Position numbers and translations under genes: made by a program
Notes under the pieces: model-generated
The model's database searches: none
The model's input: the letters and a program-made list of their open reading frames with translations, nothing else
Told to the model about the DNA's origin: nothing
Part shown: in pieces, positions 8,838-28,240 of the stretch
How positions within the stretch are numbered: the stretch's first letter is position 1
Layout: each line of letters begins with the position of its first letter
Source: Patescibacteria group bacterium
GTDB taxonomy: Bacteria; Patescibacteriota; Patescibacteriia; UBA9934; GWF2-40-263
Direction of reading: 5' to 3'
Assembly: GCA_041661745.1 (NCBI GenBank)
Contig: JBAZTR010000004.1
Span: 12,961-76,960 of the forward strand
DNA length: 64,000 nt

Positions 8838-8839
8838 AA

Positions 8840-9793: not shown

Positions 9794-9876
9794 ATTGTGT
9801 GTATTTTATCAAATTTAACCAAAATAAAAAAGACGGAGGGTTATCCGTCATTTTTATTAAAGGCTTTTATTTACTT

Positions 9877-10470: not shown

Positions 10471-10502
10471 ATGAATATAAATTATTATTAACTTATTATA
10501 TT

Positions 10503-10600
10503 GTCTATTTTTCCTCTTCCCCTCTACCCCTGCCCTCTCCTTCCCAAGGAGAGGGAGATCTCGTGGGCGCTCGACGCGGGGCTGTTTGTTTTTCTTCTCT
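10503..10600. repeat. PE-C family element (cccctgccctctcc-ttcccaa-ggagagggag) plus conserved tail gctcgacgcggggctgtttgttttt
   Basis: Inverted repeat plus a tail shared with 11040 and 17860. Confidence 0.75.
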
Positions 10601-10946: not shown

Positions 10947-10956
10947 ATTTTTAAAG

Positions 10957-11128
10957 TTATTTTCTTCCTCTCCCCCTCTATCCCCCTCTCCAAGTCCCTC
11001 TCCCCAACCCTCCCCCACTGCGGCAGTGAGGGAGGGAGATCTCGTAAGTGCTCGACGCGGGGCTATTTGTTTTTTAAAAAACCCTTCGTCCACTTCGTCC
11101 CCCTCAACCCCTTCGTCCCCCAAATCTT
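10957..11128. repeat. Compound PE-C element plus conserved 85-nt module
   Basis: cccctctccaagtccctctcccc…gggagggagatctcgt, then gtgctcgacgcggggctatttgttttttaaaaaacccttcgtccacttcgtccccctcaaccccttcgtcc. The second part recurs inverted at 17797..17885. Confidence 0.8.
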
Positions 11129-11952: not shown

Positions 11953-12110
11953 AAAATATTTTTTATATGAACAAAAAACTTAACAAAACAACTCCCAAAC
12001 CAACGCCTGTCCCGCGCCATGTTTCTTTTGGAGTTGTCACAGAAAATATTAAATTGCTTGTTTCTATTATTGCAAAAATTTCTGTTTTTGTCAATCGTTC
12101 CTACCAACTT

Positions 12111-12215
12111 TTCTTTATTTTTTTAATCTTTCCTCCCCGCAAATCCCTCTCCCCTTACCCTCCCCCGTCGTGGCGACGAGGGAGGGAGAACTCACAGGAT
12201 CTCTGCTGATCCACC
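12111..12215. repeat. PE-C family element (ccctctcccc…cccgtcgtggcgacgagggagggaga)
   Basis: C/G-tract arms around a cgtcgtggcgacg palindrome. Confidence 0.7.
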
Positions 12216-12355
12216 CTTTAGTTCGCGCATGAGACCGTTGTTAGTAAACATGAAAAGGTAGCCGATTGCTTTATCCTCTTAATGTATCGTGCAAAGGCGA
12301 TGTTTAAGAGAGAAACAACAGGAGAAAAGAAAAGCTTGGGCGACGAACAAAGGGT

Positions 12356-12421
12356 GGTTTAAAAAAGCCCTTTCTTTCCCCACCTTTCTTTGGGCTAGCA
12401 AAGAAAGGTGGAAAGAGAAGA
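12356..12421. repeat. Standalone palindrome (ctttctttccccacctttctttgggctagcaaagaaaggtggaaagagaag)
   Basis: About 20-bp inverted arms. It sits directly downstream of the 12422..12784 gene on the minus strand and could act as a terminator. Confidence 0.5.
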
Positions 12422-12784
12422 TTAACAAGTTGTATGAAAGAGGGCGTTGATATGTTTTCCTTCAGATATTAGACGGTTGTAAACAACAAGCGCTTCTGGC
12501 GTTTTTTCTACCACCACCTCAACCCCGGCCGCGCGACAAGCAGCCAAAAAATCCTCATCAATCTCAAGTTTTCCATCCTGACCAGTACCAACAATAATCA
12601 CCTCTGGTTTATTCGACAAAAGTTTTTCTGTTTCCCACGGTCCAAGGCGATGAGAGGTGCCGAACAATTCTTTCAAGCGCGGATAATCGCGCTCTTCGAT
12701 TTGATCGCCAATAATCAAAACCTGATCGAATTTTTTGTTGTCGATGATTATAAAACCGAATTCGGTGGAATCAATATGAGGCAT
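12422..12784 (-). CDS. Mth938-like domain protein (DUF498)
   Basis: Length and motif pattern (IIVGTGQDGKL…EALVVYNRLISEGKHINALFHTTC). 120 aa. Confidence 0.6.
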   Translation of the reverse strand: MPHIDSTEFGFIIIDNKKFDQVLIIGDQIEERDYPRLKELFGTSHRLGPWETEKLLSNKPEVIIVGTGQDGKLEIDEDFLAACRAAGVEVVVEKTPEALVVYNRLISEGKHINALFHTTC

Positions 12785-12788
12785 AAAA

Positions 12789-14102
12789 TTATAAAGACTC
12801 TAAAAATTTCATTACCCGCTTATCCGGAATAAGATGCCGTAACTCCAATGGTGTACGAAGGAATATTCCCCCCAAACTGCGACAGCGACTTAGGGCCACA
12901 TAAACCTGGCCCGAAGCAAAAGCGCCATAACCCAAATCAATGGCCACGCGGTCGAAAGTTTTACCCTGACTTTTGTGAATGGTCACGGCCCAGGCCAAGC
13001 GCAGGGGCATTTGTTTAAAGCTGCCGATTTTTTCGCGTTCTAAACAGCGGGTTTTGTTGTCGTAAGCAAAGCGAAACAAATTCCAGGTGTACGCTTCGAC
13101 CACAACTTCGTCACCGTTGTCTAAGGTCACAACAATTTCCCGCTCACCAAGTCTTTTAACGGTGCCAAGCGAACCGTTAACCCAGCGATCCAAAGAATCG
13201 TTATTCAAAAACATGACGCGAGCGTTTACCTTCAAAGTCAAAGCTTCATCAGTCGGGGCGTCTTTGTCTTGAAACCGCCCCTGGGCTTCAGCTTTATATA
13301 TTTTAGCTTTTTCGGACAAAGATGACAGTCGACTAAAATTTATCCGATCAGCCAGCTTGTTGGTGGTGGTAAGGATAATGGCTTCGTCGATAACCTCCTC
13401 GTCTTCCATATCAACGCAACGCGAATTCAAGGTCTTTAAATGTTCATGCCCGGCCGAACAATTACGAACGGCGTTTAAGACTTCAATAAACTTTTTATCA
13501 CTTTGCCGATAAATCTTTTCCAGCTCAACAAATGACAGACCGTCGGTGTCCTCAAAAATTTCCTTCATGACCTTGGCCGAAAAAAAGTACGGGGTTTCAT
13601 AAACCTTGGCCAAAGCTTCGGCTTCATCATCACGCACCACCGGCGGCAGTTGGTACAAGTCGCCAATCATCACCATTTGCTTTCCGCCAAACGGTTCCTT
13701 GTTACCCATGACGGCTTTTAAAAAAACATCAATGGCATCAAAAAGATCAGCCCGGACCATGGAAATTTCATCAATGACAATGGTTTCCACTTCGCGATAA
13801 AGCTCGTTCTCGCGAGCCTGGCGGCCTTCCCTTTTGGCTTCCTTTAAAGTAATGCCCGGGCGAATCAAGAAAAACGAATGAATGGTCTGCCCCTCAACAT
13901 TCAACGCGGCCACCCCGGTGGGGGCCAAAATCACCGCTTTCTTTTTGGTGGTATCACGAAAATGCCGGAGCAGGGTTGATTTACCTGTCCCGGCGCGGCC
14001 GGTAATAAAAACCGGCCGTTTGGTGTTTTCCATTATATCCAACGCGTGGACGAAATGTTTGTTTATGTCGAGGCGAGGTTTCATGTCTGAATATTCTATC
14101 AC
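12789..14102 (-). CDS. PIF1/RecD-like superfamily-1 DNA helicase
   Basis: Walker A FITGRAGTGKST, Walker B VIDEISMV, and the C-terminal TIHKSQGKTFDRV motif typical of the PIF1/RecD family. 437 aa. Confidence 0.8.
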   Translation of the reverse strand: MIEYSDMKPRLDINKHFVHALDIMENTKRPVFITGRAGTGKSTLLRHFRDTTKKKAVILAPTGVAALNVEGQTIHSFFLIRPGITLKEAKREGRQARENELYREVETIVIDEISMVRADLFDAIDVFLKAVMGNKEPFGGKQMVMIGDLYQLPPVVRDDEAEALAKVYETPYFFSAKVMKEIFEDTDGLSFVELEKIYRQSDKKFIEVLNAVRNCSAGHEHLKTLNSRCVDMEDEEVIDEAIILTTTNKLADRINFSRLSSLSEKAKIYKAEAQGRFQDKDAPTDEALTLKVNARVMFLNNDSLDRWVNGSLGTVKRLGEREIVVTLDNGDEVVVEAYTWNLFRFAYDNKTRCLEREKIGSFKQMPLRLAWAVTIHKSQGKTFDRVAIDLGYGAFASGQVYVALSRCRSLGGIFLRTPLELRHLIPDKRVMKFLESL

Positions 14103-14210
14103 ATTTTTAAAACCCCTTTGTCACTTTATAAGATTAAGCCGAAGGAGATGAAATTGATGAGGGTTTTTAAAAAAAGACGGCTACTAAATTTTGTTAATCA
14201 AACAAAAAAA

Positions 14211-15125
14211 TTACTGTAAACAATGCTGCATGAATATCATTACTAAATTTAAAACTAACCGTGCAGTCTTTTCATTAGCATACTCTTTCTTAGGATGGGG
14301 GTCCCCTTTTGTTTGTCTTTCCTGCATTAAAATTGATTCAATATCTTTAAAAATTTTAACGGTAAAAGAATTATTAGGAATCAGCTCTTTTCTTTGAGCT
14401 TCTTTTATTAAAATCCCGAGATCACCCTTACCAATTTCTCCGTTAACAATTATTTGCATAAACCCCTGCAGAGCAGCGCAAGCCAAGGTGATTGAAGAAC
14501 TATAGCCTTCTTCTGTATTTTTCAAATACGCAGACGTTGCGTTTCTAAAATCACGACTAACCGGTTCCCATTTTTTATGTCCTAAACAATTTAGTACTGG
14601 CTCAAAAATTTCCTTTGTTATTTTTTCATCTTGCCGAAGGATAAAACCCTCTTTGTTTAATAAAACGTTCAAACCGAATTGATTAGAAATATCGTTAAAT
14701 AAATCTATAAAGTCGATTATACGTTCTTCTCTTAAAACACCGATATAATATGAAATTAACTCATAGAAAACATCCTGCGTTTCTTCGTGAAAAATATGGT
14801 CAAAGTCCCTCTGGGCGGCATCTGGACAACATGTTTCTATTGACTGCCAGCCGCCTTCATCTCTTAAATGTGGGCCGCCATGCTGCTGCAAATTATTACA
14901 AAATGACCTAGCTTTATTATCTTCGTTAAATTGATATATCGTTTGATGAATTCCTTTGTCAACACCGAACCAGCCTTTATTAATAAAACACAACCAAATA
15001 TTTTTTTTCTGGTTCCGGTCAATTTCATCCCAAGAACGTATGCCCAGGTTAGGACGTAAAACCTCTCGTGCGGTGGAATTAGAATGTGACCATTTATCAA
15101 ATGTCATACTTTTAATTTTTTTCAA
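14211..15125 (-). CDS. Hypothetical protein, low GC (about 38%); possible defense/abortive-infection-like
   Basis: 304-aa ORF with no motif I recognise. Compositionally AT-richer than neighbours and adjacent to the helicase. Confidence 0.35.
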   Translation of the reverse strand: MKKIKSMTFDKWSHSNSTAREVLRPNLGIRSWDEIDRNQKKNIWLCFINKGWFGVDKGIHQTIYQFNEDNKARSFCNNLQQHGGPHLRDEGGWQSIETCCPDAAQRDFDHIFHEETQDVFYELISYYIGVLREERIIDFIDLFNDISNQFGLNVLLNKEGFILRQDEKITKEIFEPVLNCLGHKKWEPVSRDFRNATSAYLKNTEEGYSSSITLACAALQGFMQIIVNGEIGKGDLGILIKEAQRKELIPNNSFTVKIFKDIESILMQERQTKGDPHPKKEYANEKTARLVLNLVMIFMQHCLQ

Positions 15126-15217
15126 TCTACTTCTTACAAATTTTTCCGTCTCCTTATCAACAAAATAAACATAACAAAACTTTTCTTAATCTATTTTCTC
15201 TCAAGATTCAGTGTAAT

Positions 15218-16162
15218 TTAAACTGCCGCCTCCGCCCGTTCTAACAACAAATTAATATCAAATCTAGCGCCGGGATCTCGCAAGTTATCATCGACCTCTC
15301 TGACTGCGTCGTAGGAAAGAAATTTAACCGCCTTATCAAGTCCTAAATATTCACTTGAAAAAGTCGGCCGTTTTAACTGTTCAAAAACTTTTATTTTTCT
15401 ATCCCTATCAGCAACGATAAAAAGTGGATAGTTAGAATTAGGGGCCAGTGTTCTTAAATCGGATAAACGCAGAATTCCGGAATAAATACTAGTTGAGTGC
15501 TCGATTTCAAAAGCCGACTTAATTGAGTTGCCAAGTTTCCAAACCGTGTCAATGTTTTTCACATAAGACGGAACATCGATCACATCGTGAAACTCCGGAA
15601 CAACAAAATCTCTAAAATTATTTCCCTCAAATGTTTTATTTTGATCGCCGGCCGGTACCCAAACATCAAAGTTTGACTTATTTCCCAGACGAATGAGGCG
15701 CCATTGAATTTCGCTGTGCTCGGTTGGGGCACGCTCGATCTTATCATCCAAAGACAGAAACGTGGAATTAAATTCCTCTGGGTTTATTTCGATTTCTTCT
15801 AATTTCTCTCCTTTCTCTAGCTTTTGAAGAAGAGAAACGAGGTCTCCATAACTAGATAGTAAATTGTTTACTTTCTTCTGGTCTATTCCCATGAAGCCCT
15901 GCGGGTGATAATTTTTTTCATACCCAAGATATTCATTCAGTTTTTCTATCTCAACATTAAACTCAACATCATTAATCATGAAGTAGATGTATTCCCAAGT
16001 TTGGCCGCCTTCATCTGTTTGCCAAAAATATTTTGCCAGCTCGTGGTTATGCACCTTCACGGCGATTTCCGCGGCTAAAATAATTTTCCCTTTTCTATAG
16101 ACCATTACATAGTCTCCTTCCTCCATTAAATCCCAATTTCTAATATTGCTTTTCCCAGGCAT
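15218..16162 (-). CDS. Hypothetical protein; C-terminal region with a possible PD-(D/E)xK-like nuclease signature
   Basis: 314 aa. The C-terminus DVIDVP…AFEIEHSTS resembles a D…ExK-type motif. This is weak. Confidence 0.3.
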   Translation of the reverse strand: MPGKSNIRNWDLMEEGDYVMVYRKGKIILAAEIAVKVHNHELAKYFWQTDEGGQTWEYIYFMINDVEFNVEIEKLNEYLGYEKNYHPQGFMGIDQKKVNNLLSSYGDLVSLLQKLEKGEKLEEIEINPEEFNSTFLSLDDKIERAPTEHSEIQWRLIRLGNKSNFDVWVPAGDQNKTFEGNNFRDFVVPEFHDVIDVPSYVKNIDTVWKLGNSIKSAFEIEHSTSIYSGILRLSDLRTLAPNSNYPLFIVADRDRKIKVFEQLKRPTFSSEYLGLDKAVKFLSYDAVREVDDNLRDPGARFDINLLLERAEAAV

Positions 16163-16347
16163 TGCCCCCCCCAGACAGCATAAGGTCGGCCGTGTGAGTA
16201 TTCCTTGAGCTTATCAACCTCATCGGGCGACAAAAACTTAGCAGCCTCCTCCACTGTTCTTTTATTTTTAATAGTTTCGTAATAGTGTCTATCAGTGTCG
16301 TGCCCACCGCCAGCCATTACGAAAAATATTTTTCTTGTTCTACTCAT
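16126..16347 (-). CDS. Small hypothetical protein (73 aa)
   Basis: ORF overlapping the start of 15218..16162 by 37 nt. There is no recognisable domain. Confidence 0.3.
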   Translation of the reverse strand: MSRTRKIFFVMAGGGHDTDRHYYETIKNKRTVEEAAKFLSPDEVDKLKEYSHGRPYAVWGGQCLGKAILEIGI

Positions 16348-16359
16348 AATTTTTCATTA

Positions 16360-16445
16360 ATTCCCCTCCATCCTCCCACTTTCAAACGAAAAGATCAACC
16401 CAATTTAAACCTCCTCCCACCTCACCCCTGCCCTACCAAAATATC
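16360..16445. repeat. PE-C-like C-tract element (ttcccctccatcctccc…cctcctcccacctcacccctgccctacc)
   Basis: C-tract words shared with the PE-C family. Confidence 0.5.
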
Positions 16446-16505
16446 CGCACCTCGCCGTCTGAAACAGAAAAATCCTGTGAAAAAATACGATTATATGCTT
16501 AAATA

Positions 16506-16856
16506 ATGAAAGATATGGAAAAGAAACTAACAATTGGTCTATTTGCTTCCGCTGTTTTAATAATGGGGTTTTTGTTTTTCCTCGCAAACAAAACAAACAT
16601 AGTCGAAAGTAACTCAGCTGAATGTTCTGAAAACCAAAAAACCCTAATAATCAATTCCACTAACACCCTACGTTTTCCAGCTCAATTTGGTTGGGAAGGC
16701 CACACGGTCTTAATTCGCAACCAAGCCGATCAACCAATTGACAGCATGTACCCAAATCAAATCTGCGATACCGACGAAGAAGGAATTTTAGAAAAAATAA
16801 CTTCGGTAAAATTCAACGGTTTAAAAATCATAGATGAAATCTGGATTAAGGAATAA
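16506..16856 (+). CDS. Small secreted/membrane-anchored protein
   Basis: N-terminal signal/TM (KLTIGLFASAVLIMGFLFFLA). 116 aa. Confidence 0.45.
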   Translation: MKDMEKKLTIGLFASAVLIMGFLFFLANKTNIVESNSAECSENQKTLIINSTNTLRFPAQFGWEGHTVLIRNQADQPIDSMYPNQICDTDEEGILEKITSVKFNGLKIIDEIWIKE

Positions 16857-16917
16857 ATATCTTTCACAAACCTTCCGAGAGACCGGGAGGTTTTTTAAAT
16901 TAACAAAAATCCAATCA

Positions 16918-16946
16918 TTGACAAAAACCAATTTCTCCCCTACTCT
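16918..16946 (+). promoter_or_regulatory. Sigma70-like promoter ttgaca-N17-tactct for the alpha-CTD-like gene
   Basis: ttgaca at 16918 and tactct after a 17-nt spacer. GGAGGA Shine-Dalgarno sits 4 nt before ATG 16977. Confidence 0.5.
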
Positions 16947-16976
16947 GCCCACATCAAACCGGGTTCTGGAGGAAAT

Positions 16977-17282
16977 ATGTCCGACCAGTTTTATGGACTC
17001 AACGACCGAGAGTTGGAACTTCTTCTGAAGAGCGTGGACGACTTCAAAATGTCGACCCGACTCAGAAACTGCTGCGAGCACGCTGGGGTGGGATGGGTGT
17101 GGCAGATGGTCAAGCTCAACAAAGCCGAGCTGCTCGCCGAAGAGCCGCGGCGCTTCGGTCCCAAGTCGATCAAGGAGATGGAGGAACTTCTCTTGCCTAT
17201 CGGTCTTTCCATGGGCCGCAACTTCACCAGGGAGCAGCTGACGTTCCTCAACGGCTGTTCCAATCCGGCCGGTACGGCCTAA
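16977..17282 (+). CDS. Stand-alone RNA polymerase alpha-subunit C-terminal-domain (alpha-CTD)-like HhH protein
   Basis: STRLRNCCEHAGVGWVWQMVKLNKAELLAE-PRRFGPKSIKEMEELLLPIGLSMG aligns to E. coli RpoA alpha-CTD [54 protein letters not shown]. GC-rich, 101 aa. Confidence 0.65.
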   Translation: MSDQFYGLNDRELELLLKSVDDFKMSTRLRNCCEHAGVGWVWQMVKLNKAELLAEEPRRFGPKSIKEMEELLLPIGLSMGRNFTREQLTFLNGCSNPAGTA

Positions 17283-17372
17283 CCACATCTCGCTCTCCAC
17301 TGTTTTCTGGTGGAGTTTTTTAAATCTCTCAAAAAAAAATAAAACCTCAGCAGTGCTGAGGCAGAAGTCAGT
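17283..17372. terminator. Bidirectional intrinsic terminators between convergent alpha-CTD-like genes
   Basis: ctccactgttttctggtggag+T6 for the plus gene. cctcagcagtgctgagg followed on the minus strand by ttttattttttttt for the minus gene. Confidence 0.7.
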
Positions 17373-17385
17373 GACGAACGGACGA

Positions 17386-17718
17386 TCAGGTCCGTCGGGC
17401 GTTGAGGGCATGCTCGAGGCCACGGAAGGCTCGGCTGAACTCGCGAGCCCCCTCGATGAGGCTCGGGTGGTCCAGGGCTTCCACCTTGGCGGCGATCTCA
17501 GGGTCGTCCGGGATCTGGGGCAGGCCGAGCCGGTTGAGCTGGCGGTTGATGCAGCGCCAGGTGTCTTGGCCGTAGCCGCGCCGGTGAGCGAGGTCGCGAC
17601 GGGTGAGCTGGGTCACATCGCCGGCCGTGCAGCAGTGGTGGCGCGCGGCGAGGTAGTTGACGAGGTTGCGATCGAAACCGGCTTCGACAAGCAAAAGCGA
17701 GGCGGAATCTTGACACAT
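17386..17718 (-). CDS. Stand-alone alpha-CTD-like HhH protein (paralog)
   Basis: NLVNYLAARHHCCTAGDVTQLTRRDLAHRRGYGQDTWRCINRQLNRLGLPQ follows the same alpha-CTD pattern, including a Cys pair. GC-rich, 110 aa. Confidence 0.6.
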   Translation of the reverse strand: MCQDSASLLLVEAGFDRNLVNYLAARHHCCTAGDVTQLTRRDLAHRRGYGQDTWRCINRQLNRLGLPQIPDDPEIAAKVEALDHPSLIEGAREFSRAFRGLEHALNARRT

Positions 17719-17796
17719 GTAATCTCCGGGGTTGGGGGCGACAAAAGGTTTGTATCAAAAAAAACAAAATTGATCAACTTGCTTGGGAGTTTTTTA

Positions 17797-17885
17797 ATTT
17801 AGAAAAGGACGAGGGGTTTGAGGGGGACGAAGAGGACGAAGTGTTTAAAAAACAAAAAGCCCCGCGTCGAGCACCGAAGGACAGC
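17797..17885. repeat. Conserved 85-nt module, inverted copy of 11040..11128
   Basis: Its reverse complement reads gtgctcgacgcggggctttttgttttttaaacacttcgtcctcttcgtccccctcaaacccctcgtcc. Confidence 0.8.
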
Positions 17886-18115
17886 CCGGCTGAAGCGGCC
17901 CTTACCTTCAGTTGGTCGGCGAGCTATGTTCGAGTGCAGCCCCGCAACTTGCTTGACTTAACAATCGAGCAAGGTGCAGGGGCCAGCGAGTTAGCGAGCC
18001 GTGGCCGCTGAAGGCGGTTAGCTGTCCGAGGAGCGGAGACAGGGGCAGTGTTTCTTTTGCTGTGTCCACCGAAGCTCGGCGAAGGAGGATAACTTTTCTT
18101 TGCGACAAAGAAAAG

Positions 18116-18760
18116 TTAATAAGAAGACTCCCTTAAACACTTTCGAAATTTTCTAAAATCAGGACAATGTAAAGCCACCAATTGCCAAAAAGCGCGCGAA
18201 TGATTTTTGTGCGGAATATGCGCCAGCTCGTGCACCACGACATAATCAACAACTTCCAGCGGTTGAAGAATTAATTTCCAACCAAAGTTAAGATGATTTT
18301 TGTGGCTGCACGAGCCCCAGCGTTTTTGGGCGCTGTTAATTTTTATCGAAGTAAAATTCACTCCCATTTGTTTAGCATACAAAGTGGCCCGTTCGGTAAT
18401 TATTTCTTTGGCTTCCTGTTTATACCAAGCAGCCATTTTAATTTTAGCTTTAGGCAAAAACTTTTGGGGAAAAAGTAAATCGCCTTTTAGCTCGATCTTT
18501 TTAACTTTAGAAATTTTTAAGGGATAACTTTCCCCCAAGTACCAAAACACTTCCCCGTCGACGAATTCTTTTGGTTGTGACTTGGGGCGATTTTTAACGG
18601 CGACAATTTTCTTTTGAATCCAGGACATTTTATCTTGCACTAATTTTTCAATATAAACTTCCGAAACTCGCTGGGGTGCCCGAATTATCAAAACCGCCTC
18701 GGGAGTTATCTCCAGGCTGATAGTGCGGCGGTTGGAACGGATGATTTTTGCGGTTTCCAT
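18116..18760 (-). CDS. M48-family / DUF45 (YgjP-like) zinc metallopeptidase
   Basis: HELAHIPHKNHS zinc-binding motif near the C-terminus. 214 aa. Confidence 0.7.
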   Translation of the reverse strand: METAKIIRSNRRTISLEITPEAVLIIRAPQRVSEVYIEKLVQDKMSWIQKKIVAVKNRPKSQPKEFVDGEVFWYLGESYPLKISKVKKIELKGDLLFPQKFLPKAKIKMAAWYKQEAKEIITERATLYAKQMGVNFTSIKINSAQKRWGSCSHKNHLNFGWKLILQPLEVVDYVVVHELAHIPHKNHSRAFWQLVALHCPDFRKFRKCLRESSY

Positions 18761-18779
18761 TTTGGCATTATAGCAAATA

Positions 18780-18960
18780 AATATATTTTATCCTCACCAG
18801 TGCCCCCCCCGTTTCCCCTCACCCTTACCCTCTCCCTGCCAAGATCAGATGGGAGAGGGGGTGGTGTTATTTCGTCACAGGGGATTCCCCTCCCCCATCT
18901 GCTTTTTTAGCAGGGGGAGGGGTTAGGGGAGAGGGGCCAACAACACGAACGGGGCGGCGC
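18780..18960. repeat. Compound PE-C palindromic module (inter-cassette element, copy 1)
   Basis: ccctctccctgccaagatcagatgggagaggggg … cccctcccccatctgcttttttagcagggggaggggttaggggagaggggcc. Near-identical modules at 19741..19900 and 21541..21750. Confidence 0.85.
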
Positions 18961-18968
18961 CGGCGGTC

Positions 18969-18997
18969 TGGACACAAATTCAAAGACATGCTAAAAA
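18969..18997 (+). promoter_or_regulatory. Conserved cassette promoter tggaca-N17-taaaaa
   Basis: tggaca at 18969..18974 and taaaaa at 18992..18997. The same motif with identical spacing recurs at 19903 and 20557. Confidence 0.6.
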
Positions 18998-19030
18998 AGT
19001 ATGCCCCCTTTTAGAAAAAGGAAAGAAACC

Positions 19031-19720
19031 ATGCAGGACACCATTAAGCATCTTCTCCTTATTGCCCGACTCACAGCACTGGCCAACAAGGTCAACGGAG
19101 TGATCACCGATAAAAGGCAGGAAAAGACGATCACAAAGCTGATCATGGGGGGATTGGTTCGCACTATCCTCTGGGGCGTGCTCTGGTACGTTCCACTCTG
19201 GCTTCTGGGGGACCCTTCGTTCCTTATGAAGCTCCTCTGGGCCAACCTGATCGTCAGCGCGATGCTCTTCGTTGTGCACGCAGTTGTTCCAAGCAACGTG
19301 ATCACTCGAAGGATGCAGCGGCAAAAGATTAAGACGAAAGGACCTATGGCGATCTTCGGTCTGTTCATTGTCATCTTCTTCATGCCCACAGCATTACTCT
19401 TCGCGGTGAAGGCGGGCGACCAGTACCAGGAGGTCTTGGCCGGCAAAATCCTGCGCGACGACCGGGCCACGCTCTTTTCGCGAAACGGACATCTGATCAA
19501 ACTCGTTGAGGAGTATTTTGTGAGGTCTGGAAAAGAGATGGACAAAACCGTCATGGATCAGGTCTGGGTGCTGGAGCAGGAGCTGCTCGACTTTTCCGAG
19601 CGAACTGGCGAGCTCGGCGAAAGCAACGAAATCACCTGGCCGGAGACCGAGCCTTTCCTCAGAAGAGTTGAGAGGCTGATCGACGAACTCACTGTCTTGA
19701 CTGGCAACACTTCCTCTTAA
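19031..19720 (+). CDS. GC-rich cassette gene 1: membrane protein (3–4 TM) with cytoplasmic C-terminal domain
   Basis: The track ORF starts at 19001, inside the promoter. Met at 19031 after AAGGAAAG is preferred. TM segments are LVRTILWGVLWYVPLWLL, LLWANLIVSAMLFVV and IFGLFIVIFFMPTALLFAV. GC is about 58%. Confidence 0.55.
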   Translation: MQDTIKHLLLIARLTALANKVNGVITDKRQEKTITKLIMGGLVRTILWGVLWYVPLWLLGDPSFLMKLLWANLIVSAMLFVVHAVVPSNVITRRMQRQKIKTKGPMAIFGLFIVIFFMPTALLFAVKAGDQYQEVLAGKILRDDRATLFSRNGHLIKLVEEYFVRSGKEMDKTVMDQVWVLEQELLDFSERTGELGESNEITWPETEPFLRRVERLIDELTVLTGNTSS

Positions 19721-19742
19721 CCCTCACCTGAGGGATTTTTTA
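19721..19742 (+). terminator. Cassette terminator cctcacctgagg + T-run
   Basis: Conserved hairpin (atcctca-cc-tgaggat) plus a T-tract after each of the three cassette genes, at 19721, 20484 and 21511. Confidence 0.6.
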
Positions 19743-19900
19743 TTCCCTCTCCTTCTGACGGCCATACCCCTCACCCCCTGCCCCTCTCCCTGCCAAGATC
19801 AGAGGGGAGAGGGGTTGTAAACTTTGTCACGAAAAGTTCCCCTCCCCCATCTGCTTTTTTAGCAGGGGGAGGGGTTAGGGGAGAGGGGCCAACACATGAG
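19741..19900. repeat. Compound PE-C palindromic module (inter-cassette element, copy 2)
   Basis: Near-identical to 18780..18960. Confidence 0.85.
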
Positions 19901-19902
19901 GG

Positions 19903-19931
19903 GAGGGCTTTCTGGACACAAACCAAAAACA
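19903..19931 (+). promoter_or_regulatory. Conserved cassette promoter tggaca-N17-taaaaa
   Basis: Same motif and spacing as at 18969. Confidence 0.6.
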
Positions 19932-19981
19932 ATGTTAAAAACACAAAAGTCGGCAAGCCTCTCGGCGGTGCGGAGGGAAAG

Positions 19982-20434
19982 ATGAAAATCGAACTAACCA
20001 CTCGTATGAGCGTACGTGTGGTCACGGGCGATCTGTCGGCAGACGTCCACCTCGAGGATCGTCGTTTGAAAGCACTGATTGCCCTCGCGTATAAATTCAA
20101 GGGTGAATGCGTCACCCTTGTCATCGATCCGATGATGGAAGAGGAAGCGACCTCGATCATCGACTCGATCGCGGGTCTCAACGGTGAGGGAGCCGACCAG
20201 ACAATCAACGGCCGACGCCTGGATGTGCACGAGCTCAGGGTTGATTGCGGAAACCAGCGCGGTATTGTCGTGAACCCCCACAACCCGAGATGCGATCTGC
20301 TTCTCCTCATGAGCATCGCAATCAAATCAGAACAGCTCACCGTCGAACTGCCGCCAACCGACACCATGGCCGAACTCGTCGACCGAATCTCGGTCTACCC
20401 CTTCCCGCACAAGGAAAGGGTCATGCCAGAATAA
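19982..20434 (+). CDS. GC-rich cassette gene 2: hypothetical soluble protein (150 aa)
   Basis: GGAGGG Shine-Dalgarno 5 nt upstream. GC about 60%. No domain recognised. Confidence 0.55.
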   Translation: MKIELTTRMSVRVVTGDLSADVHLEDRRLKALIALAYKFKGECVTLVIDPMMEEEATSIIDSIAGLNGEGADQTINGRRLDVHELRVDCGNQRGIVVNPHNPRCDLLLLMSIAIKSEQLTVELPPTDTMAELVDRISVYPFPHKERVMPE

Positions 20435-20483
20435 CTTAGCCACGCTGTAGCTCGCCACGAGCGAAGGCGGGACGCCACCCTCT

Positions 20484-20509
20484 CGATCCTCACCTGAGGA
20501 TCTTTTTAT
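20484..20509 (+). terminator. Cassette terminator (gatcctcacctgaggatc + T5)
   Basis: Conserved hairpin plus T-tract. Confidence 0.6.
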
Positions 20510-20550
20510 TTCTGGCTGGTCTCCTACTCTCCCAGCTTCCTAGTCTCCTA
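20505..20550. repeat. PE-T family fragment (ctcctactctcccagcttcctagtctcctaaca)
   Basis: Shares ctcctag/cctagtctcc words with the elements at 22166, 33533 and 41294. Confidence 0.5.
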
Positions 20551-20556
20551 ACACTC

Positions 20557-20585
20557 TGGACACAAATCCAAAACTATGATAAAAA
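20557..20585 (+). promoter_or_regulatory. Conserved cassette promoter tggaca-N17-taaaaa
   Basis: Same motif and spacing as the other two cassette promoters. Confidence 0.6.
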
Positions 20586-20622
20586 TCTGGGTCGCAAATT
20601 CCGCGCGACTCTGGAGGATTCC

Positions 20623-21492
20623 ATGAACGTAATCCATGATGGAGAAACCGGAGGCATCCGGGTGTTCTTCGGGGAAACCGTGATCGACATCGACCCCCGC
20701 GATCCGCGCTGTCATGGGCTGCTCAACGACCGGGGGTTCATGAAGATCGCCAACATCAAGTGCGGTTCGATCTTGATCGTCTTCGGCCGGAGCTTGAGGA
20801 CGAAGACGGCCCGCATGATGGGCGAGATCATGTTCGGCTGGACCCTCACCAATTCCTCGAACTCGCAAATCGTCGCCGAAAGAGGGGTGCGTGTGAGGAT
20901 CGGCGGCTGGAAGCCCATGCCCGTGCCGCACAACTGCGATATGTTCGAGCTCCTCGAACACGCGGACGCGCTGTACTTCGACACGATGGAGATCCGAACG
21001 AAGGCTTCGGAGGTGGCAGCCAGGGCCTTGGGGCCGTTCATCATGATCCCCTTCGTTCCGCCCGAGCCGACCCCGAGCGAACTGGCCATCGCCGAGTTCA
21101 GGAGAAGGACCGGCGTGGAGCCGACTTCGGTGCTGCTCGAAGCAGAGGCCGAGGATGCTCCCGAACCACCGGTGGCGGTTCCGGCTGGCGCCGAAGCGAA
21201 CTCCCCCATCCCCGGCCTCACGCCGGAGCAGGTCAAGAACCTGATCAGGCGATGCGACGAGCTGGGGTTCACCACTCGTGTGACGAACGGCCTCAGGACC
21301 GTCGGATGTGAATTCGTCTACCAGGTGGTGGAAAAAACCGGACCCGAGACGCTCGGGGCCAAGGGCCTCGGTCGCAGGTCCAATAATGAGCTCAGGGTGA
21401 TTCTCGCCGAACTCGGGCTCAGCTTCGGCATGAACTTCACCACCGAACAGCGAGCCGCTCTCGAGCGCCTGGCTCACCAGCTGCCGCGCTGA
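20623..21492 (+). CDS. GC-rich cassette gene 3: two-domain protein with C-terminal alpha-CTD-like HhH domain
   Basis: The C-terminus TTRVTNGLRTVGCEFVYQVVEKTGPETLGAKGLGRRSNNELRVILAELGLSFGMNFTTEQ parallels ORFs 16977 and 17386. The N-terminal 200 aa have no recognisable domain. GGAGGA Shine-Dalgarno. Confidence 0.6.
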   Translation: MNVIHDGETGGIRVFFGETVIDIDPRDPRCHGLLNDRGFMKIANIKCGSILIVFGRSLRTKTARMMGEIMFGWTLTNSSNSQIVAERGVRVRIGGWKPMPVPHNCDMFELLEHADALYFDTMEIRTKASEVAARALGPFIMIPFVPPEPTPSELAIAEFRRRTGVEPTSVLLEAEAEDAPEPPVAVPAGAEANSPIPGLTPEQVKNLIRRCDELGFTTRVTNGLRTVGCEFVYQVVEKTGPETLGAKGLGRRSNNELRVILAELGLSFGMNFTTEQRAALERLAHQLPR

Positions 21493-21510: not shown

Positions 21511-21537
21511 CGATCCTCACCTGAGGATCTTTTTTTA
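21511..21537 (+). terminator. Cassette terminator (gatcctcacctgaggatc + T7)
   Basis: Conserved hairpin plus T-tract. Confidence 0.6.
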
Positions 21538-21540: not shown

Positions 21541-21750
21541 CCCTCTCCTTCTGAGCCGTTGTACCCCTCACCCATACCCCCGTGCCGATGTCACCCCCCC
21601 CCTCACCCCTGCCCCTCTCCCTGCCAAGATCAGAGGGGAGAGAGGTTGTAGACTTTGGCACAAAAAGTTCCCCTCCCCCATCTGCTTTTTTAGCAGGGGG
21701 AGGGGTTAGGGGAGAGGGGCCAACACGTGAGGGGAGGATTGAGGAGAGGG
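21541..21750. repeat. Compound PE-C palindromic module (copy 3, extended)
   Basis: Near-identical core to 18780 and 19741, with additional C-tract arms. Confidence 0.85.
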
Positions 21751-22157: not shown

Positions 22158-22165
22158 TTAAACAA

Positions 22166-22194
22166 GCTAGCCTCCTAGTCTCCTAGCATCCTAC
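22166..22194. repeat. PE-T family element (ctagcctcctagtctcctagcatcctacc)
   Basis: cctag-based tandem words shared with the elements at 33533, 41294 and 20505. Confidence 0.6.
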
Positions 22195-23666
22195 CGCACC
22201 TTCTTCGTCACATTAAATCCAAGATACTTCCCCAACATAAGGCGAGTCTGCGCATCAATGGCCGGTGCGGCTCCGAACACCGTAAAAGTAATGGGAAGAA
22301 GAAGCCACTGAAAAATCATGACAATCCAAGCGGTTGCTTTCACGGTCTTTGGTCGTGGTGGCAACATGGTTAAGGACAAGCCGGCGGTAATAAAGGCTCC
22401 ACCCATGGCTAGTCGCATAATCCATTCCAAAGTAAAAGGCGCGGCATGAATAATGGCCGAGCCACTGCCGGCCGCCACCCATAGCGGCAAATAACCAAGG
22501 GCAAAAATAAGAATCGGCGCCGTGGCCCAGGTGTACATGCCCTCAATATGATTGAAAAGATATTTAATTTTCTTGTTCAAGGGAATGAGCTTATCTTTTT
22601 TAAAGGCATCAACCATGACCGGAAAGTGTTCGACACCCCAAGCCCAGCGACGCTGCTGTTTGTACAAGGCTTTTAAACTCTCCCAATAGTTGGCGCCAAC
22701 GACCGTGTCCATGGAAACCGGCAAAAACATCGGTACCACGCGATAGTCGCCGTGGTATTTAAGGAAAGCTTGCAGAAAAATTCGCGAATCTTCCGAGACA
22801 ATATCTTTTTGCCAAAAATCAACATCAACTAACATTTTCCACGGCATGGAGTGCGAAGAAAAAGTCCAAAGTCGGTCCGAGCGAGCCAATTCCGTCAAAA
22901 GCCAAAAAACCGTACCAAAGGCGGCAATTCTAACCGGGGCGCGCGAGGTCCAAATATTATTGGAAAACAGGACAACTGGTTGATATGAGGCGTGCGTTGG
23001 ATTCGGCGAAGTTAAATACAAATACGAAAGGCAGGCGAAGTACGATGGGTGTACGACAGTGTCGACGTCAAACGAGGAAACAATAATATCTTCGGCTGGG
23101 ATATCAGAAAACTCACTGGCCAAAATCTTTTTAACTTCGTGGCCGGAATAATTAAGGTTGGAACCTTTACCGGGAATTTCGTCAGGCAGACCAACCGGAT
23201 GTTCGGTAACAATAATTTTTTTGAAGGTTTTGCTAAATTCCTGTGAAATAATCGCCGCGTTTTTTTGGAAACGCTCGTGATCACGTCCTTCACCGGCCAA
23301 GACAATAATCATTTTGTCCTTGGGGTAATGGGTCGCGGCAATGGAACGCAAGGTTTCACGAATAATTTCCGTGCTTTCTTTATAAGTCGGCAAGAAAATT
23401 AAATGATGCAGGCGCTGCCAATTATTTTGTTTTTGTAAGTCAGCAAACCAATCATACTTAATGGCGTGTTTGTATTCGCGCCAGGAAAGCAGCATGAAAA
23501 TGGCAAAATAAACAATTCTAAAAAACCAATAAAGGTCAAAAACAATAATAAAGACAACGGGAATAATTGGCGCGACAAACGACAAAACAATCGCCAAAAT
23601 TAAAGTCGTCCAGACCAAGGCGCCGGGGAAAATTTCCCAAATTCGATTTTTGCCATATGTCGACAT
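22191..23666 (-). CDS. Processive family-2 glycosyltransferase (CesA/chitin-synthase-like membrane GT2)
   Basis: N- and C-terminal multi-TM regions flank a GT-A domain carrying the QQRRW (QxxRW) motif of processive beta-glycosyltransferases. 491 aa. Confidence 0.75.
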   Translation of the reverse strand: MSTYGKNRIWEIFPGALVWTTLILAIVLSFVAPIIPVVFIIVFDLYWFFRIVYFAIFMLLSWREYKHAIKYDWFADLQKQNNWQRLHHLIFLPTYKESTEIIRETLRSIAATHYPKDKMIIVLAGEGRDHERFQKNAAIISQEFSKTFKKIIVTEHPVGLPDEIPGKGSNLNYSGHEVKKILASEFSDIPAEDIIVSSFDVDTVVHPSYFACLSYLYLTSPNPTHASYQPVVLFSNNIWTSRAPVRIAAFGTVFWLLTELARSDRLWTFSSHSMPWKMLVDVDFWQKDIVSEDSRIFLQAFLKYHGDYRVVPMFLPVSMDTVVGANYWESLKALYKQQRRWAWGVEHFPVMVDAFKKDKLIPLNKKIKYLFNHIEGMYTWATAPILIFALGYLPLWVAAGSGSAIIHAAPFTLEWIMRLAMGGAFITAGLSLTMLPPRPKTVKATAWIVMIFQWLLLPITFTVFGAAPAIDAQTRLMLGKYLGFNVTKKVR

Positions 23667-23720
23667 AGAAATTTCCCCTCCCCTTACGAAGGGGAGGGGT
23701 TAAGGGGTGAGGTTAGGACG
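23662..23720. repeat. PE-C element (cccctcccc-ttacgaa-ggggagggg-ttaaggggtgagg)
   Basis: Perfect 9-bp inverted repeat of the PE-C family. Confidence 0.8.
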
Positions 23721-24387: not shown

Positions 24388-24394
24388 ATGTTTT

Positions 24395-24477
24395 TTAGTG
24401 GGTAGGTGTGTAGTAGGTAGTATGTAGGCAAAAGTTCCCGACTAGATCTATTGCCTACCCACTACATACTACATACT
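24395..24477. repeat. Palindromic element PE-Y
   Basis: Same orientation as the 7645 copy. Confidence 0.85.
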
Positions 24478-24881
24478 CAAACCTTTTTAATAGTAATATG
24501 AGGCGGCCGATCGTAAACCGGGGTAACAAAACCTTCGGTTTTTTGTTTTACCCAAATAGCGCCGGATGTTCGGATCATTTCTTCCCCACCCTGGCGGGCC
24601 GCGTTTTCTACACCAATCACTAAAAGTTTCTTGGCAAAGGCTAAAGCATTGGCAATGGTGACAATAATCCTGGTCGAGGTAAACGAACCTGGGCCGGAAA
24701 CCACCACAATCTTTTCCAGGGCTTCTGGCGAAACCAAGTGATCGTGCAAAAATTCGGCGGTCGTGGCCAAATAACCCTCGGGGGCAACGGTAAATTCCTG
24801 AAACGAAAGAAGACGACCTTCGCTATCAAGAAGGCCGGCTTCCATTCGAGTAATATCTTGAGCGGCCAAGAATAAAATCAT
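24477..24881 (-). CDS. tsaB: TsaB (YeaZ)-like protein, truncated ASKHA fold
   Basis: VVSGPGSFTSTRIIVTIANALAFA matches the TsaB/Kae1-family glycine-rich loop. 134 aa, shorter than canonical TsaB. Confidence 0.55.
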   Translation of the reverse strand: MILFLAAQDITRMEAGLLDSEGRLLSFQEFTVAPEGYLATTAEFLHDHLVSPEALEKIVVVSGPGSFTSTRIIVTIANALAFAKKLLVIGVENAARQGGEEMIRTSGAIWVKQKTEGFVTPVYDRPPHITIKKV

Positions 24882-28237: not shown

Positions 28238-28240
28238 ATT

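Follow-up and report, generated by a model that had tools for sequence, protein, structure and literature searches.

The C-terminal domain of the RNA polymerase (RNAP) alpha subunit (alpha-CTD; PDB 1COO, 1LB2) is a ~70-aa domain with two helix-hairpin-helix (HhH) units. In E. coli, its '265 determinant' contacts the minor groove of A/T-rich UP elements, as established by genetics and the 1LB2 structure. Alpha-CTD-like domains are common outside RpoA and are not novel in themselves; the PGAP class 'DNA-directed RNA polymerase subunit alpha C-terminal domain-containing protein', which holds non-RpoA proteins matching PF03118, is to our knowledge functionally uncharacterised. Phage morons are independent promoter-gene-terminator units of deviant composition. 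The competence co-activator TfoX/Sxy (TfoX_N + TfoX_C), which acts in transcription activation, offers an earlier example of a regulator that incorporates an alpha-CTD-like module: its C-domain has been assigned to the same HhH superfamily as alpha-CTD (bioRxiv 10.1101/284836).

Here, we analysed a window of 64,000 nucleotides from a Patescibacteria group bacterium (contig JBAZTR010000004.1). We tentatively read four of its genes, at a confidence just short of even, as a two-module family (N-domain; alpha-CTD) whose ORF3-type members would be DNA-binding transcription or nucleoid regulators. ORF1 and ORF3 bear the PGAP class name; most other members of that class are tandem-CTD proteins or carry the domain fused to helicases, TPR repeats or sigma-70 region 4. 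Like TfoX/Sxy, the architecture pairs an N-terminal domain, predicted to dimerise in TfoX/Sxy, with an alpha-CTD-related C-terminal HhH domain; however, the N-domains are unrelated, with no match to PF04993 or PF04994 (TfoX) at E <= 1 in these proteins, and TfoX works with CRP in Gammaproteobacteria. As in alpha, the CTD of ORF3 follows a flexible linker at the C-terminus, whereas the family departs from alpha in its missing alpha-NTD, its stand-alone (ORF1) and tandem-CTD forms, its fast divergence and its high GC3 (GC content at third codon positions).

Alpha-CTD-like domains outside RpoA

ORF1 (16977..17282, + strand; 101 aa) is a stand-alone alpha-CTD-like domain, and ORF3 (20623..21492, + strand; 289 aa) consists of an N-domain, a Pro-rich linker and an alpha-CTD. 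The original prediction aligned both, together with ORF2 (17386..17718, - strand; 110 aa), to the RpoA CTD. In the Pfam search, ORF1 (31.6 bits) and ORF3 (30.9 bits, aa 205-263) exceeded the PF03118 gathering score of 23.8, and ORF2 had no match, its likeness emerging by profile-profile comparison only. In both ORF1 (best match 5.6e-8) and ORF3, matches to PDB alpha chains were confined to the CTD, and the two CTDs share 32% identity (E 3e-11, pairwise comparison). The motif proposed for all three proteins fits ORF1, partially fits ORF3 and poorly fits ORF2. The proposed conserved Cys pair was not borne out: the CC of ORF1 lies at alpha N268-C269, that of ORF2 lies in the first hairpin, adjacent Cys residues are absent from the ORF3 CTD, and a single Cys position is common to two of the proteins, ORF2 and ORF3.

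ORF1 keeps residues equivalent to R265, N268, C269, G296, K298 and S299 of E. coli alpha, and ORF3 those equivalent to R265, N268, G296, K298 (as R) and S299, each with part of the acidic 258/259 patch; E261 is replaced by K in ORF1 and by G in ORF3. Among nine aligned family CTDs, the R265 equivalent is present in all, and N268, G296, K/R298 and S/T299 each in eight. Since the '265 determinant' is kept, ORF3-type proteins most likely bind DNA via the CTD, and binding of UP-element-like DNA by ORF1 and ORF3 is plausible given their retained DNA-contact residues.

The alpha-CTD-like domain of ORF3 with its family tail (GMNFTTEQRAAL; 21214..21492, + strand) further differs from alpha-CTD in that tail, GMNF(S/T)xEQxAAL. 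ORF1 carries the family tail motif GxNF(T/S)xEQ, which suggests that it is a CTD-only derivative.

NCBIfam rpoA models match ORF1 and ORF3 across the CTD only, at 30-47 bits, below cut-offs of 227-523. Neither PF01193 nor PF01000 has a match in these proteins, so that they do not qualify as RNAP subunits by sequence, and ORF1, ORF2 and ORF3 are non-RpoA proteins that carry an (HhH)2 domain of alpha-CTD type. A search did not locate the genome's genuine rpoA, so a role linked to an unusual RpoA is conceivable.

An origin as fragments of a disrupted rpoA, named in the original prediction as a possible refutation, is ruled out by the lack of an alpha-NTD anywhere in the window, the sub-cut-off rpoA scores and the full-length ORF3 architecture of homologs elsewhere. 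The broader idea of decaying duplicated-rpoA fragments or spurious ORFs in GC-rich DNA could draw on the ENA gene caller, which chose antisense ORFs over ORF1 and ORF2 (L005 6199-6666, minus; 6749-7180, plus), indicating long ORFs on both strands of this GC-rich DNA. Yet the frames of ORF1, ORF2 and ORF3 show strong GC3 periodicity, other genomes hold significant homologs in the same frames, Shine-Dalgarno (SD) sequence, start and terminator are intact for every gene, and the architecture is specific to the family, with rpoA not its source; we regard this idea as effectively refuted.

The N-domain and its N-only paralog

The N-domain of ORF3 (20623..21060, + strand; aa 1-146) is rich in beta, carries an RDPR motif and is recovered at E 1.3e-13 by an HMM built from outside homologs; Pfam and PDB sequence searches gave no match for it. 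It may represent an internal duplication (internal repeat probability 78%). The linker that follows (21061..21213, + strand; aa 147-197) is Pro/Ala/Glu-rich, and its length differs between homologs in the alignment. ORF4 (19982..20434, + strand; 150 aa) is an N-domain-only paralog lacking an alpha-CTD, matched over its full length (E 3.9e-11) by an HMM from outside homologs only. Single-sequence AlphaFold models reached pLDDT values of 44.7 and 38.7, too low for use.

This layout of N-domain, flexible linker and CTD mirrors alpha, raising the question of whether the proteins could serve RNAP as alpha-like subunits, be it accessory or alternative ones. The N-domain would then dock on RNAP or dimerise in the manner of alpha-NTD and supply an additional or substitute alpha-CTD in trans. 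Such a role would matter most where the genuine RpoA of the lineage has a reduced CTD. It agrees with the D258 equivalent of the '261 determinant', acidic (D or E) in 9/9 family CTDs with a variable D259 position, and with the ORF3-type gene being found at a fixed position by core genes in all the related loci analysed. We nonetheless consider it improbable: no similarity between the N-domain and alpha-NTD could be detected (PF01193, PF01000, PDB), and divergence as fast as that described below is unexpected in a core RNAP subunit. Under the regulator reading that we prefer, the N-domain would instead supply oligomerisation or partner binding, in an alpha-like layout without alpha-NTD, and the CTD would bind DNA; the free CTD of ORF1 and the free N-domain of ORF4 might then compete with ORF3 or RNAP alpha for DNA or partners.

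ORF2 and a putative second family

ORF2 is annotated at NCBI as a hypothetical protein (WC702_03975), whereas ORF1 and ORF3 are already named there as an 'alpha C-terminal domain-containing protein' and an alpha-CTD-domain protein. Pfam, NCBIfam and PHROG searches gave no match for ORF2, and BLAST found no similarity to ORF1 or ORF3. Against an alpha-CTD profile built from 120 domains, hhalign returned a probability of 82-88% for ORF2 alone, with a score of 33 versus 10.3 +/- 2.1 (maximum 18) in 60 shuffles, i.e., 10 sd higher; adding three syntenic homologs raised the probability to 95% (E 3.7e-8). The aligned part (aa 10-68) includes both HhH units, pointing to a member of a second, more remote alpha-CTD-like family. 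The equivalents of R265 and K298 are lost (N and D instead), and with these DNA-contact residues missing the fold is more likely to serve ORF2 in contacting proteins. Homologs adjoin the YgjP gene in loci L001-L004 (42% identity) and L065; a candidate beside YgjP in L063, weakly similar to the ORF2-type proteins of L065 and L001 only, is probably another.

Distribution of the family

A profile of ORF3 and ORF1 matched 3763 library cluster representatives at E <= 1e-3. Among the best 99 of these 3763, two are true RpoA (RNA_pol_L) and 97 lack the RpoA N-terminal domain; fusions to sigma-70 region 4 account for 25 of the 99, and TPR repeats or helicases are the fusion partners in others. Seven of the best-scoring matches were examined, and all seven have the complete ORF3 architecture; a two-CTD form also exists (P0006; KKT70548.1, Candidatus Uhrbacteria). 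The ORF3 family (~140-aa N-domain, Pro-rich linker, alpha-CTD) appears lineage-specific, in Patescibacteria related to Candidatus Uhrbacteria, and is undescribed: in the literature searched, we know of no account of this architecture, its N-only paralog, its syntenic locus in Uhrbacteria relatives or its conserved leader.

Chromosomal setting, divergence and composition

The original prediction described the genes as lying next to each other on both strands. ORF1 and ORF2 are indeed convergent neighbours, but ORF3 lies 2.9 kb off, past three other genes. These include a YgjP-like metallopeptidase gene (18116..18760, - strand; PF01863, E 2e-58), a synteny anchor outside the family with 71-79% identity in related loci. 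In related genomes, ORF3- and ORF2-type genes occupy the same site among core genes (YgjP ... GT2-MscS-TsaB-L12-L10), a position shared in L001-L004 and L060 and, on the YgjP side, in L063 and L065; one of these genomes is Candidatus Uhrbacteria. Beside the genes lies a variable island with PDC-S13, a PIF1/RecD-like helicase, a REase_II-like gene and an Abi_C-like gene. ORF3- and ORF2-type genes are long-term residents of a single chromosomal site, which borders this variable island of defence type.

The same genes diverge much faster than their neighbours: ORF3-type proteins share 26-36% identity between loci across most of their length (48% for the CTD alone in L060) and ORF2-type proteins 34-42%, as compared to 55-90% for neighbour genes. 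Fast divergence, shifting copy number and architecture, high GC3 and adjacent defence genes look more conflict-like than housekeeping-regulator-like. One could propose conflict-driven decoys or sensors that imitate alpha-CTD and draw phage factors, for example ADP-ribosyltransferases acting on R265 or alpha-cleaving proteins, so as to protect RNAP or trigger the neighbouring defence genes. The divergence, the turnover of forms (two-CTD P0006, N-only ORF4, CTD-only ORF1), the position at the island edge and the invariant R265 equivalent would fit such a role, and alpha-attacking phage proteins are documented, e.g., Rac of phiKMV-like phages (PMC7552054). However, ORF1-ORF4 have no PADLOC match, no defence genes lie close to the family gene of L060, which is flanked by core genes, and each gene is monocistronic with no fused or operonic effector domain. 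The proposal is entirely speculative, and we judge it quite unlikely.

The genes are GC-rich, as originally noted, with GC3 of 0.76, 0.82 and 0.82 for ORF1, ORF2 and ORF3; family-type genes of the region span 0.68-0.82 versus 0.41-0.56 in neighbours. This composition had been taken as a sign of acquisition, the proteins being seen as free alpha-CTD mimics of a recently acquired mobile element or prophage that might compete with host alpha for UP elements or activators and so, speculatively, hijack transcription or block defence. In line with that proposal, the layout is moron-like: every gene has a promoter-like site and an intrinsic terminator to itself and departs from its neighbours in base composition. 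In addition, an 83-aa stand-alone alpha-CTD-like protein is encoded on a viral contig (L042 5920-6171), and a Trichlorobacter plasmid bears an alpha-CTD-domain protein. ORF1, moreover, lies in a genome-specific defence-type sub-island that also holds Abi_C-like and restriction-endonuclease-like genes and is missing from L065 and L060; it alone among these genes could be a recent arrival. For ORF3 and ORF2, the mobile-element origin does not hold up. Unlike morons, they are chromosomal, outside prophage and syntenic across species between core genes, with conserved promoter and leader. Their orthologs are likewise GC3-rich, making the anomaly a lasting family property rather than evidence of recent transfer. 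The window has no adjacent integrase, transposase or phage structural gene, ORF1-ORF4 have no PHROG match, and curated phage and plasmid collections yielded just a handful of weak CTD matches. We thus consider the mobile-element proposal unlikely, if less so than the decoy one; the genes more probably encode DNA-binding regulators of an uncharacterised kind than hijackers serving a mobile element.

Promoters, leaders, terminators and repeats

A canonical promoter had been claimed at 16918 for ORF1. The site read from the sequence (16919..16947, + strand) has TTGACA, a 17-nt spacer and TACTCT, but its -10 hexamer matches only 3/6 positions, and the consensus scan therefore omits it; across the region, promoter-like matches are about as many as expected by chance (4 vs 3.1). 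After the site come a short stem (GCCC/GGGT) with a loop, ACATCAAAC, similar to the family leader loop, and then the SD GGAGGA. A distinct promoter motif, CTGGACACAAA...ATGnTAAAAA, was found three times versus 0 expected and is conserved in other genomes. Its copies lie 5' of a membrane-protein (TM) gene (18968..18997, + strand), of ORF4 (19912-19941) and of ORF3 (20556-20585). The ORF3 leader forms a stem-loop (20591..20609, + strand; GTCGC-AAATTCCGC-GCGAC) between the -10 hexamer and the SD, of which ORF4 has a degenerate copy with G-U pairing (19949..19969, + strand). Promoter and leader hairpin are conserved over nine genes, with 95.6% of cells paired and two compensatory pairs.

Every gene has its own intrinsic terminator, and terminator-like sites in the region number 17 versus 8.0 +/- 2.6 expected. 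The terminators of ORF1 (17295..17315, + strand) and ORF2 (17344..17362, - strand) are convergent. That of ORF3 (21512..21529, + strand; GATCCTCACCTGAGGATC, then a T run) recurs in near-identical copies after ORF4 (20485-20502) and the TM gene (19721-19734). The TM gene (19001..19720, + strand; 239 aa, GC3 0.70) thus has the same promoter and terminator modules as ORF3 and ORF4; a search of the related loci gave no homolog for it. Finally, a 132-nt hairpin-forming intergenic repeat occurs in three copies (18823..18954; 19775-19906; 21606-21737), whose weak miRNA-precursor-like Rfam matches point to long hairpins.

Alpha-CTD-like domains in ORF1, ORF2 and ORF3

We show that the RNA polymerase alpha-CTD feature of this locus is real, and that automated annotation already recognises it at the domain level. 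ORF1 (16977-17282 (+), 101 aa) and ORF3 (20623-21492 (+), 289 aa), both named 'alpha C-terminal domain-containing protein' by NCBI, scored 31.6 and 30.9 bits, respectively, with the Pfam HMM PF03118 (RNA_pol_A_CTD), above its gathering score of 23.8 bits, the ORF3 match spanning aa 205-263. The two CTDs share 32% identity (E 3e-11), and NCBIfam rpoA models and PDB alpha chains matched both proteins over the CTD only. ORF2 (17386-17718 (-), 110 aa) gave no PF03118 match at E <= 1, no other match in Pfam, NCBIfam or PHROG, and no BLAST similarity to ORF1 or ORF3. When aligned by hhalign to a purpose-built profile of 120 alpha-CTD-like domains, ORF2 as a single sequence reached a probability of 82-88% and a score of 33, against 10.3 +/- 2.1 (maximum 18) for shuffled controls (n = 60); a profile of ORF2 and three syntenic homologs reached 95% (E 3.7e-8) over aa 10-68, a stretch that takes in both helix-hairpin-helix units. 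These profile alignments support, short of proof, homology of ORF2 to the alpha-CTD domain. The original prediction of three alpha-CTD-like proteins, to be checked with PF03118, thus holds by curated thresholds for ORF1 and ORF3, whereas ORF2 belongs with them by remote homology and not through the Pfam model. AlphaFold2 models from single sequences (pLDDT 44.7 for ORF2 and 38.7 for ORF3) were unusable for fold.

The sequence motif originally written for the three proteins fits ORF1 well, ORF3 in part and ORF2 poorly. A Cys pair had also been attributed to all of them; no pair is conserved across ORF1, ORF2 and ORF3, and a metal-site reading was dropped. UP elements and many activators dock chiefly on the alpha-CTD, and in E. 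coli the residues of the '265 determinant' (R265, N268, G296, K298 and S299, E. coli alpha numbering) touch the minor groove of A/T-rich UP elements, as established by genetics and PDB 1LB2. ORF1 keeps the equivalents of R265, N268, C269, G296, K298 and S299, and ORF3 those of R265, N268, G296 and S299, with R at 298. Of nine family CTDs, all have the R265 equivalent, and each of the other four positions is retained in 8/9. In ORF2, positions 265 and 298 are N and D, so the determinant is lacking.

A two-module family and its relation to RpoA

Exhaustive HMMER searching with an ORF3 and ORF1 profile across 1.84 billion cluster representatives recovered 3763 proteins at E <= 1e-3 and 370 at E <= 1e-10; word-indexed homolog searches with ORF1, ORF2 and ORF3 returned nothing beyond each query itself. 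The full ORF3 architecture is also found in seven outside proteins (P0006, P0008, P0010, P0011, P0015, P0029 and P0078), in which a ~140-aa N-domain with the motif hxVxxGxxxxxVxxRDPR is followed by a Pro-rich linker of varying length, the alpha-CTD and a family-specific tail, GMNF(S/T)xEQxAAL. An N-domain HMM made from the outside proteins alone, with the window sequences left out, matched the N-terminus of ORF3 (E 1.3e-13) and, across its full length, ORF4 (19982-20434 (+), 150 aa; E 3.9e-11), which, judged by this profile, is an N-domain-only paralog of ORF3. ORF4 was missed in the original prediction, and it has promoter and terminator modules in common with ORF3. The family tail is present in ORF1 (GRNFTREQLTFL), which suggests that the origin of ORF1 is a member of the N-domain and alpha-CTD family that lost its N-domain, not rpoA. 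The N-domain belonged to no Pfam family in a scan of nine family members, and its profile found no relative by sequence in the PDB; it may be an internal duplication (internal-repeat probability 78%). Scans of genome, metagenome and viral contigs with CTD motifs only gave CTD-only matches and none with the N-domain; most of the seven matches spot-checked were genuine rpoA of other phyla.

Beyond this family, a Pfam scan of 99 among the best profile-search matches found PF03118 in all 99, the RpoA dimerisation domain in only two, a sigma-70 region 4 fusion in 25, and further fusions to TPR repeats and ResIII helicases. Most of 152 proteins checked (listed matches and a few cluster members) carried at least two tandem CTD-like domains. 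As these counts of fusions and tandem domains indicate, alpha-CTD-like domains outside RpoA form a large, diverse class. The best non-RpoA matches, P0004-P0106, mostly have 2-5 tandem CTD-like domains each. Additionally, an 83-aa stand-alone alpha-CTD-like protein is encoded on viral contig L042 (5920-6171; IMGVR_UViG_3300032243_000903); it keeps the R265, N268 and GRKS residues, and a small HTH-like ORF adjoins it. Our literature search found no study of non-RpoA alpha-CTD proteins, an absence from searchable literature that is no proof of novelty, and we know of no functional study of them, abundant as they are in metagenomes.

We took as bona fide RpoA a protein with a full-length TIGR02027 / PRK05182 score above cut-off as well as PF01193 and PF01000. 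The two Pfam models of the RpoA N-terminal domain (NTD; PF01193 and PF01000) matched none of ORF1-ORF3 or the family members, and the full-length NCBIfam rpoA models gave 19-47 bits against cut-offs of 227-523. RpoA has an NTD for dimerisation and assembly, whereas the window proteins bear no similarity to alpha-NTD; the same dissimilarity of the N-domain speaks against a role of these proteins as an RNA polymerase subunit supplied in trans, which we consider very unlikely. RpoA queries from other phyla aligned, within the window, solely to the CTDs of ORF1 and ORF3 and found no genuine rpoA there; nor is one present in the 10 kb past the right end of the window, which carry SecE-NusG-L11-L1 and nucleotide-metabolism genes. 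Fragments of a disrupted rpoA duplicate, which the original prediction had named among the findings that would overturn it, as well as a pseudogene or an artefact, are refuted by the homologs, the GC3 periodicity and the intact signals.

Synteny, divergence and base composition

The source contig, JBAZTR010000004.1 (146,030 bp; NCBI locus tags WC702_*), belongs to a metagenome-assembled genome of the Patescibacteria (CPR). We compared it with loci of other assemblies, L001-L004 (all the same locus of P0006, i.e., KKT70548.1 of Candidatus Uhrbacteria), L060-L062 (the P0015 locus), L063/L064 and L065; L063/L064 and L065 are short contigs ending just past the family gene, so that only their upstream YgjP side is comparable. 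In L001-L004 and L060, the ORF3-type gene has the position that ORF3 has in the window, directly beside a block of GT2 (491 aa), MscS, TsaB, a 227-aa gene, a ~710-aa gene, L12 and L10. An ORF2-type gene follows just downstream of the metallopeptidase gene YgjP (18116-18760 (-) in the window) in L001-L004 and L065, and probably also in L063, whose protein shows weak similarity, and to the L065 and L001 proteins only. Proteins encoded by the flanking genes share 55-90% identity with their window counterparts; ORF3-type proteins are 26-36% identical over most of their length (48% for L060, over the CTD alone) and ORF2-type proteins 34-42%. The architecture differs among genomes: P0006 carries a pair of CTDs, in L001 there is a second, tandem gene with N-domain plus CTD, and the window version is ORF4 plus ORF3. 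P0029 (L069) stands in another context, upstream of rpsF-ssb-rpsR. Directly upstream of the ORF3-type gene, L063 (6556-7359) and L065 (5214-6056) have a conserved 267-280-aa gene that is absent from the window; its product has no Pfam match on record, and its C-terminal KKGYGFI looks, by eye, cold-shock-domain-like.

Compared with L060, the window has ~13 kb of extra DNA between a 349-aa GT2 gene (6197-7246) and ORF3, containing a PDC-S13 homolog (11104-11952; E 2e-118), a PIF1/RecD-like helicase gene (12789-14102), an Abi_C-like gene (14211-15125), a REase_II/NmeDI_C-like gene (15218-16162), ORF1, ORF2, YgjP, the membrane-protein (TM) gene (19001-19720 (+)) and ORF4. This DNA is a variable, defence-type island, which we delimit at 7247-18760 and which is absent from the related locus L060. 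PADLOC matched PDC-S13, REase_II and PDC-S68 among the neighbouring island genes and gave no match for ORF1, ORF2, ORF3, ORF4 or the TM gene. Rapid divergence and the island-edge position would fit family proteins acting as a decoy or guard in phage conflict; however, with no PADLOC match for the family proteins, we regard such a role as decidedly improbable. ORF1, together with the low-GC genes around it, is missing from L065 and may therefore have arrived more recently.

These genes had been put forward as candidate transcription-hijacking or anti-defence factors of a mobile element, acting as free alpha-CTD mimics. The viral 83-aa protein indicates that stand-alone alpha-CTDs do occur on viruses; however, the synteny between core genes and the conserved promoters weaken this proposal, ORF1-ORF4 have no PHROG match, and no mobility genes were found, with no integrase or transposase adjacent within the window. 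Hijacking is therefore unlikely, and it could yet apply to ORF1, for which, in a genome-specific sub-island, this test is weaker. Integron-like cassettes were also discarded, as an integrase is missing and REP-like hairpins of a generic kind, present across the window, make up the repeats.

The predicted GC richness was borne out. Against a background GC of ~0.40-0.48, GC-rich genes occupy 16.9-22.1 kb, and GC3 is 0.76, 0.82 and 0.82 in ORF1, ORF2 and ORF3, respectively, versus 0.41-0.56 in their neighbours. The orthologs in L001 have GC3 of 0.77 and 0.66 versus about 0.45, and orthologs elsewhere a gene GC of 0.55-0.62 versus 0.47-0.50 for the whole locus. It is a puzzling evolutionary pattern that a syntenic gene in low-GC genomes diverges rapidly while its GC3 stays high. 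Foreign-looking GC3 (0.71-0.83) is also found at 66-485 and 486-971, orphan ORFs that each follow a 53-nt repeat (24-76 and 525-577), and at 32306-33472, which encodes an HD-domain protein; high GC3 is thus scattered across this low-GC genome, beyond the alpha-CTD locus. The ENA annotation of the contig (L005) calls antisense ORFs in place of ORF1 and ORF2, at L005 6199-6666 (-) and 6749-7180 (+), i.e., window 16821-17288 (-) and 17371-17802 (+). The frames used by NCBI for ORF1 and ORF2 are those favoured by homology and by GC3 periodicity.

Promoters, terminators and a conserved leader

The promoter predicted for ORF1 (16919-16947) is not canonical: its -35 is perfect, its -10 matches at only 3/6 positions, and a consensus scan does not report it. 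Promoter-like matches across the region are at chance level. ORF1, ORF2 and ORF3 each have their own intrinsic terminator. The TM gene, ORF4 and ORF3 have near-identical promoter and terminator modules in common, namely CTGGACACAAA...ATGnTAAAAA (3 matches versus 0 expected) and CCTCACCTGAGG followed by a T run. Overall, nine genes (ORF3, ORF4 and seven family genes of other loci) have the same upstream layout, with a -35 of T(G/T)GACA, a 17-nt spacer, an extended -10 of TGnTA(A/T)AAA and a stem-loop just before the SD.

The stem-loop, GTCGC-(AAtTCAACC)-GCGAC, lies at 20591-20609 ahead of ORF3 and at 19949-19969 ahead of ORF4, and outside the window at about 7964-7990 in L001 and in L060, L063, L065, L069 and L071 (alignment A7). 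In the 9-sequence alignment, 95.6% of the cells are paired, two pairs are compensatory, and three more changes are to G-U; this covariation was reached by 13 of 500 shuffles. The pattern lends modest support to an RNA hairpin at the 5' end of the mRNA; the stem-loop, for which Rfam gave no match, may instead be an autoregulatory DNA operator. The ORF1 leader has a different stem and a similar loop, and that of ORF2 retains GTCGC and a segment resembling CCAACC, with the 3' arm missing.

Putative role in transcription

The most economical reading of the retained contact residues is that ORF3-type proteins would bind DNA via their CTD, with the N-domain serving oligomerisation or partner contacts; if this scheme holds, ORF1 and ORF4 would be single-module competitors or modulators. 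For ORF2, to judge from its substitutions, protein contacts are the probable use of the fold. In other proteins this domain is often fused to sigma-70 region 4, which fits a role in transcription. The TfoX/Sxy regulator, the only analogy to come out of the literature search, offers a precedent, its C-domain being related to alpha-CTD, although no window protein matched TfoX_N (PF04993) or TfoX_C (PF04994) at E <= 1.

We further propose, as a speculation with a small chance of being correct, that Uhrbacteria-related CPR bacteria possess a fast-evolving 'alpha-mimic' module system. Its targets in trans would be DNA upstream of promoters or the partners of RNAP alpha-CTD, and it would tune or protect host transcription in phage or symbiotic-host conflict. 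A two-module protein (N-domain and an alpha-CTD competent for UP-like DNA) would work with single-module derivatives, i.e., a CTD on its own, an N-domain on its own and a CTD-like protein blind to DNA, and the common 5' leader hairpin could be an autoregulatory site. If this is true, alpha-CTD would be the basis of a new class of transcription modulators, the alpha-mimic proteins. Should these proteins bind UP-like DNA or partners of alpha-CTD, they would uncover in CPR bacteria a tier of control over transcription, or of conflict between phage and host; to our knowledge, almost nothing is known of how that group regulates transcription. The locus is a compact natural dissection of such a family, with full-length, CTD-only and N-only forms and a variant without the DNA-contact residues. 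Its orthologs are clear, its promoter and leader are conserved, and R28 of ORF1 and R219 of ORF3 are residues open to testing. What is new here is the modular family, ORF4, the assignment of ORF2, the combination of synteny, fast divergence and lasting GC3 bias, and the conserved leader.

Other features of the window

The gap between YgjP and ORF2 holds a GC-rich element of ~300 nt with no long ORF (17800-18115 (-)), predicted to fold into a long rod-like structure with a U run at its end (MFE -113.8 kcal/mol, z = -4.8). Rfam gave no match for this element, which may be an ncRNA or a repeat element of the hairpin type; two further copies of the motif at its 3' end, CTCGACGCGGGGCTnTTTGTTTTT, lie at 10566-10593 and 11048-11078. 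At 45532-45628 (+), Rfam identified a 97-nt tRNA (50.6 bits) with extra sequence past the anticodon region, which may hold an intron or unusual insertion; ARAGORN found no tRNA in the whole window.

Several repeat families occur between genes. A 132-nt double-hairpin repeat lies at 18823-18954, 19775-19906 and 21606-21737, and intergenic CCCCTC...GAGGGG palindromes, a genome-wide family, at 1104-1137, 10531-10564, 23674-23707, 38594-38627 and 39790-39823; both are REP- or MITE-like elements, some of which act as terminators. A second intergenic family, an inverted-repeat element of ~90 nt (GTAGTATGTAGTGGGTAGGCAA ... TTGCCTAC...), has five copies in both orientations (2983-3071, 7636-7725, 24389-24478, 28235-28322 and 34048-34137). 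Finally, an 8-nt periodic motif (CTAGnCTC / CCTAGnCT) forms short arrays beside several genes, at 20516-20561, 22159-22212, 33547-33584 and 41342-41395.
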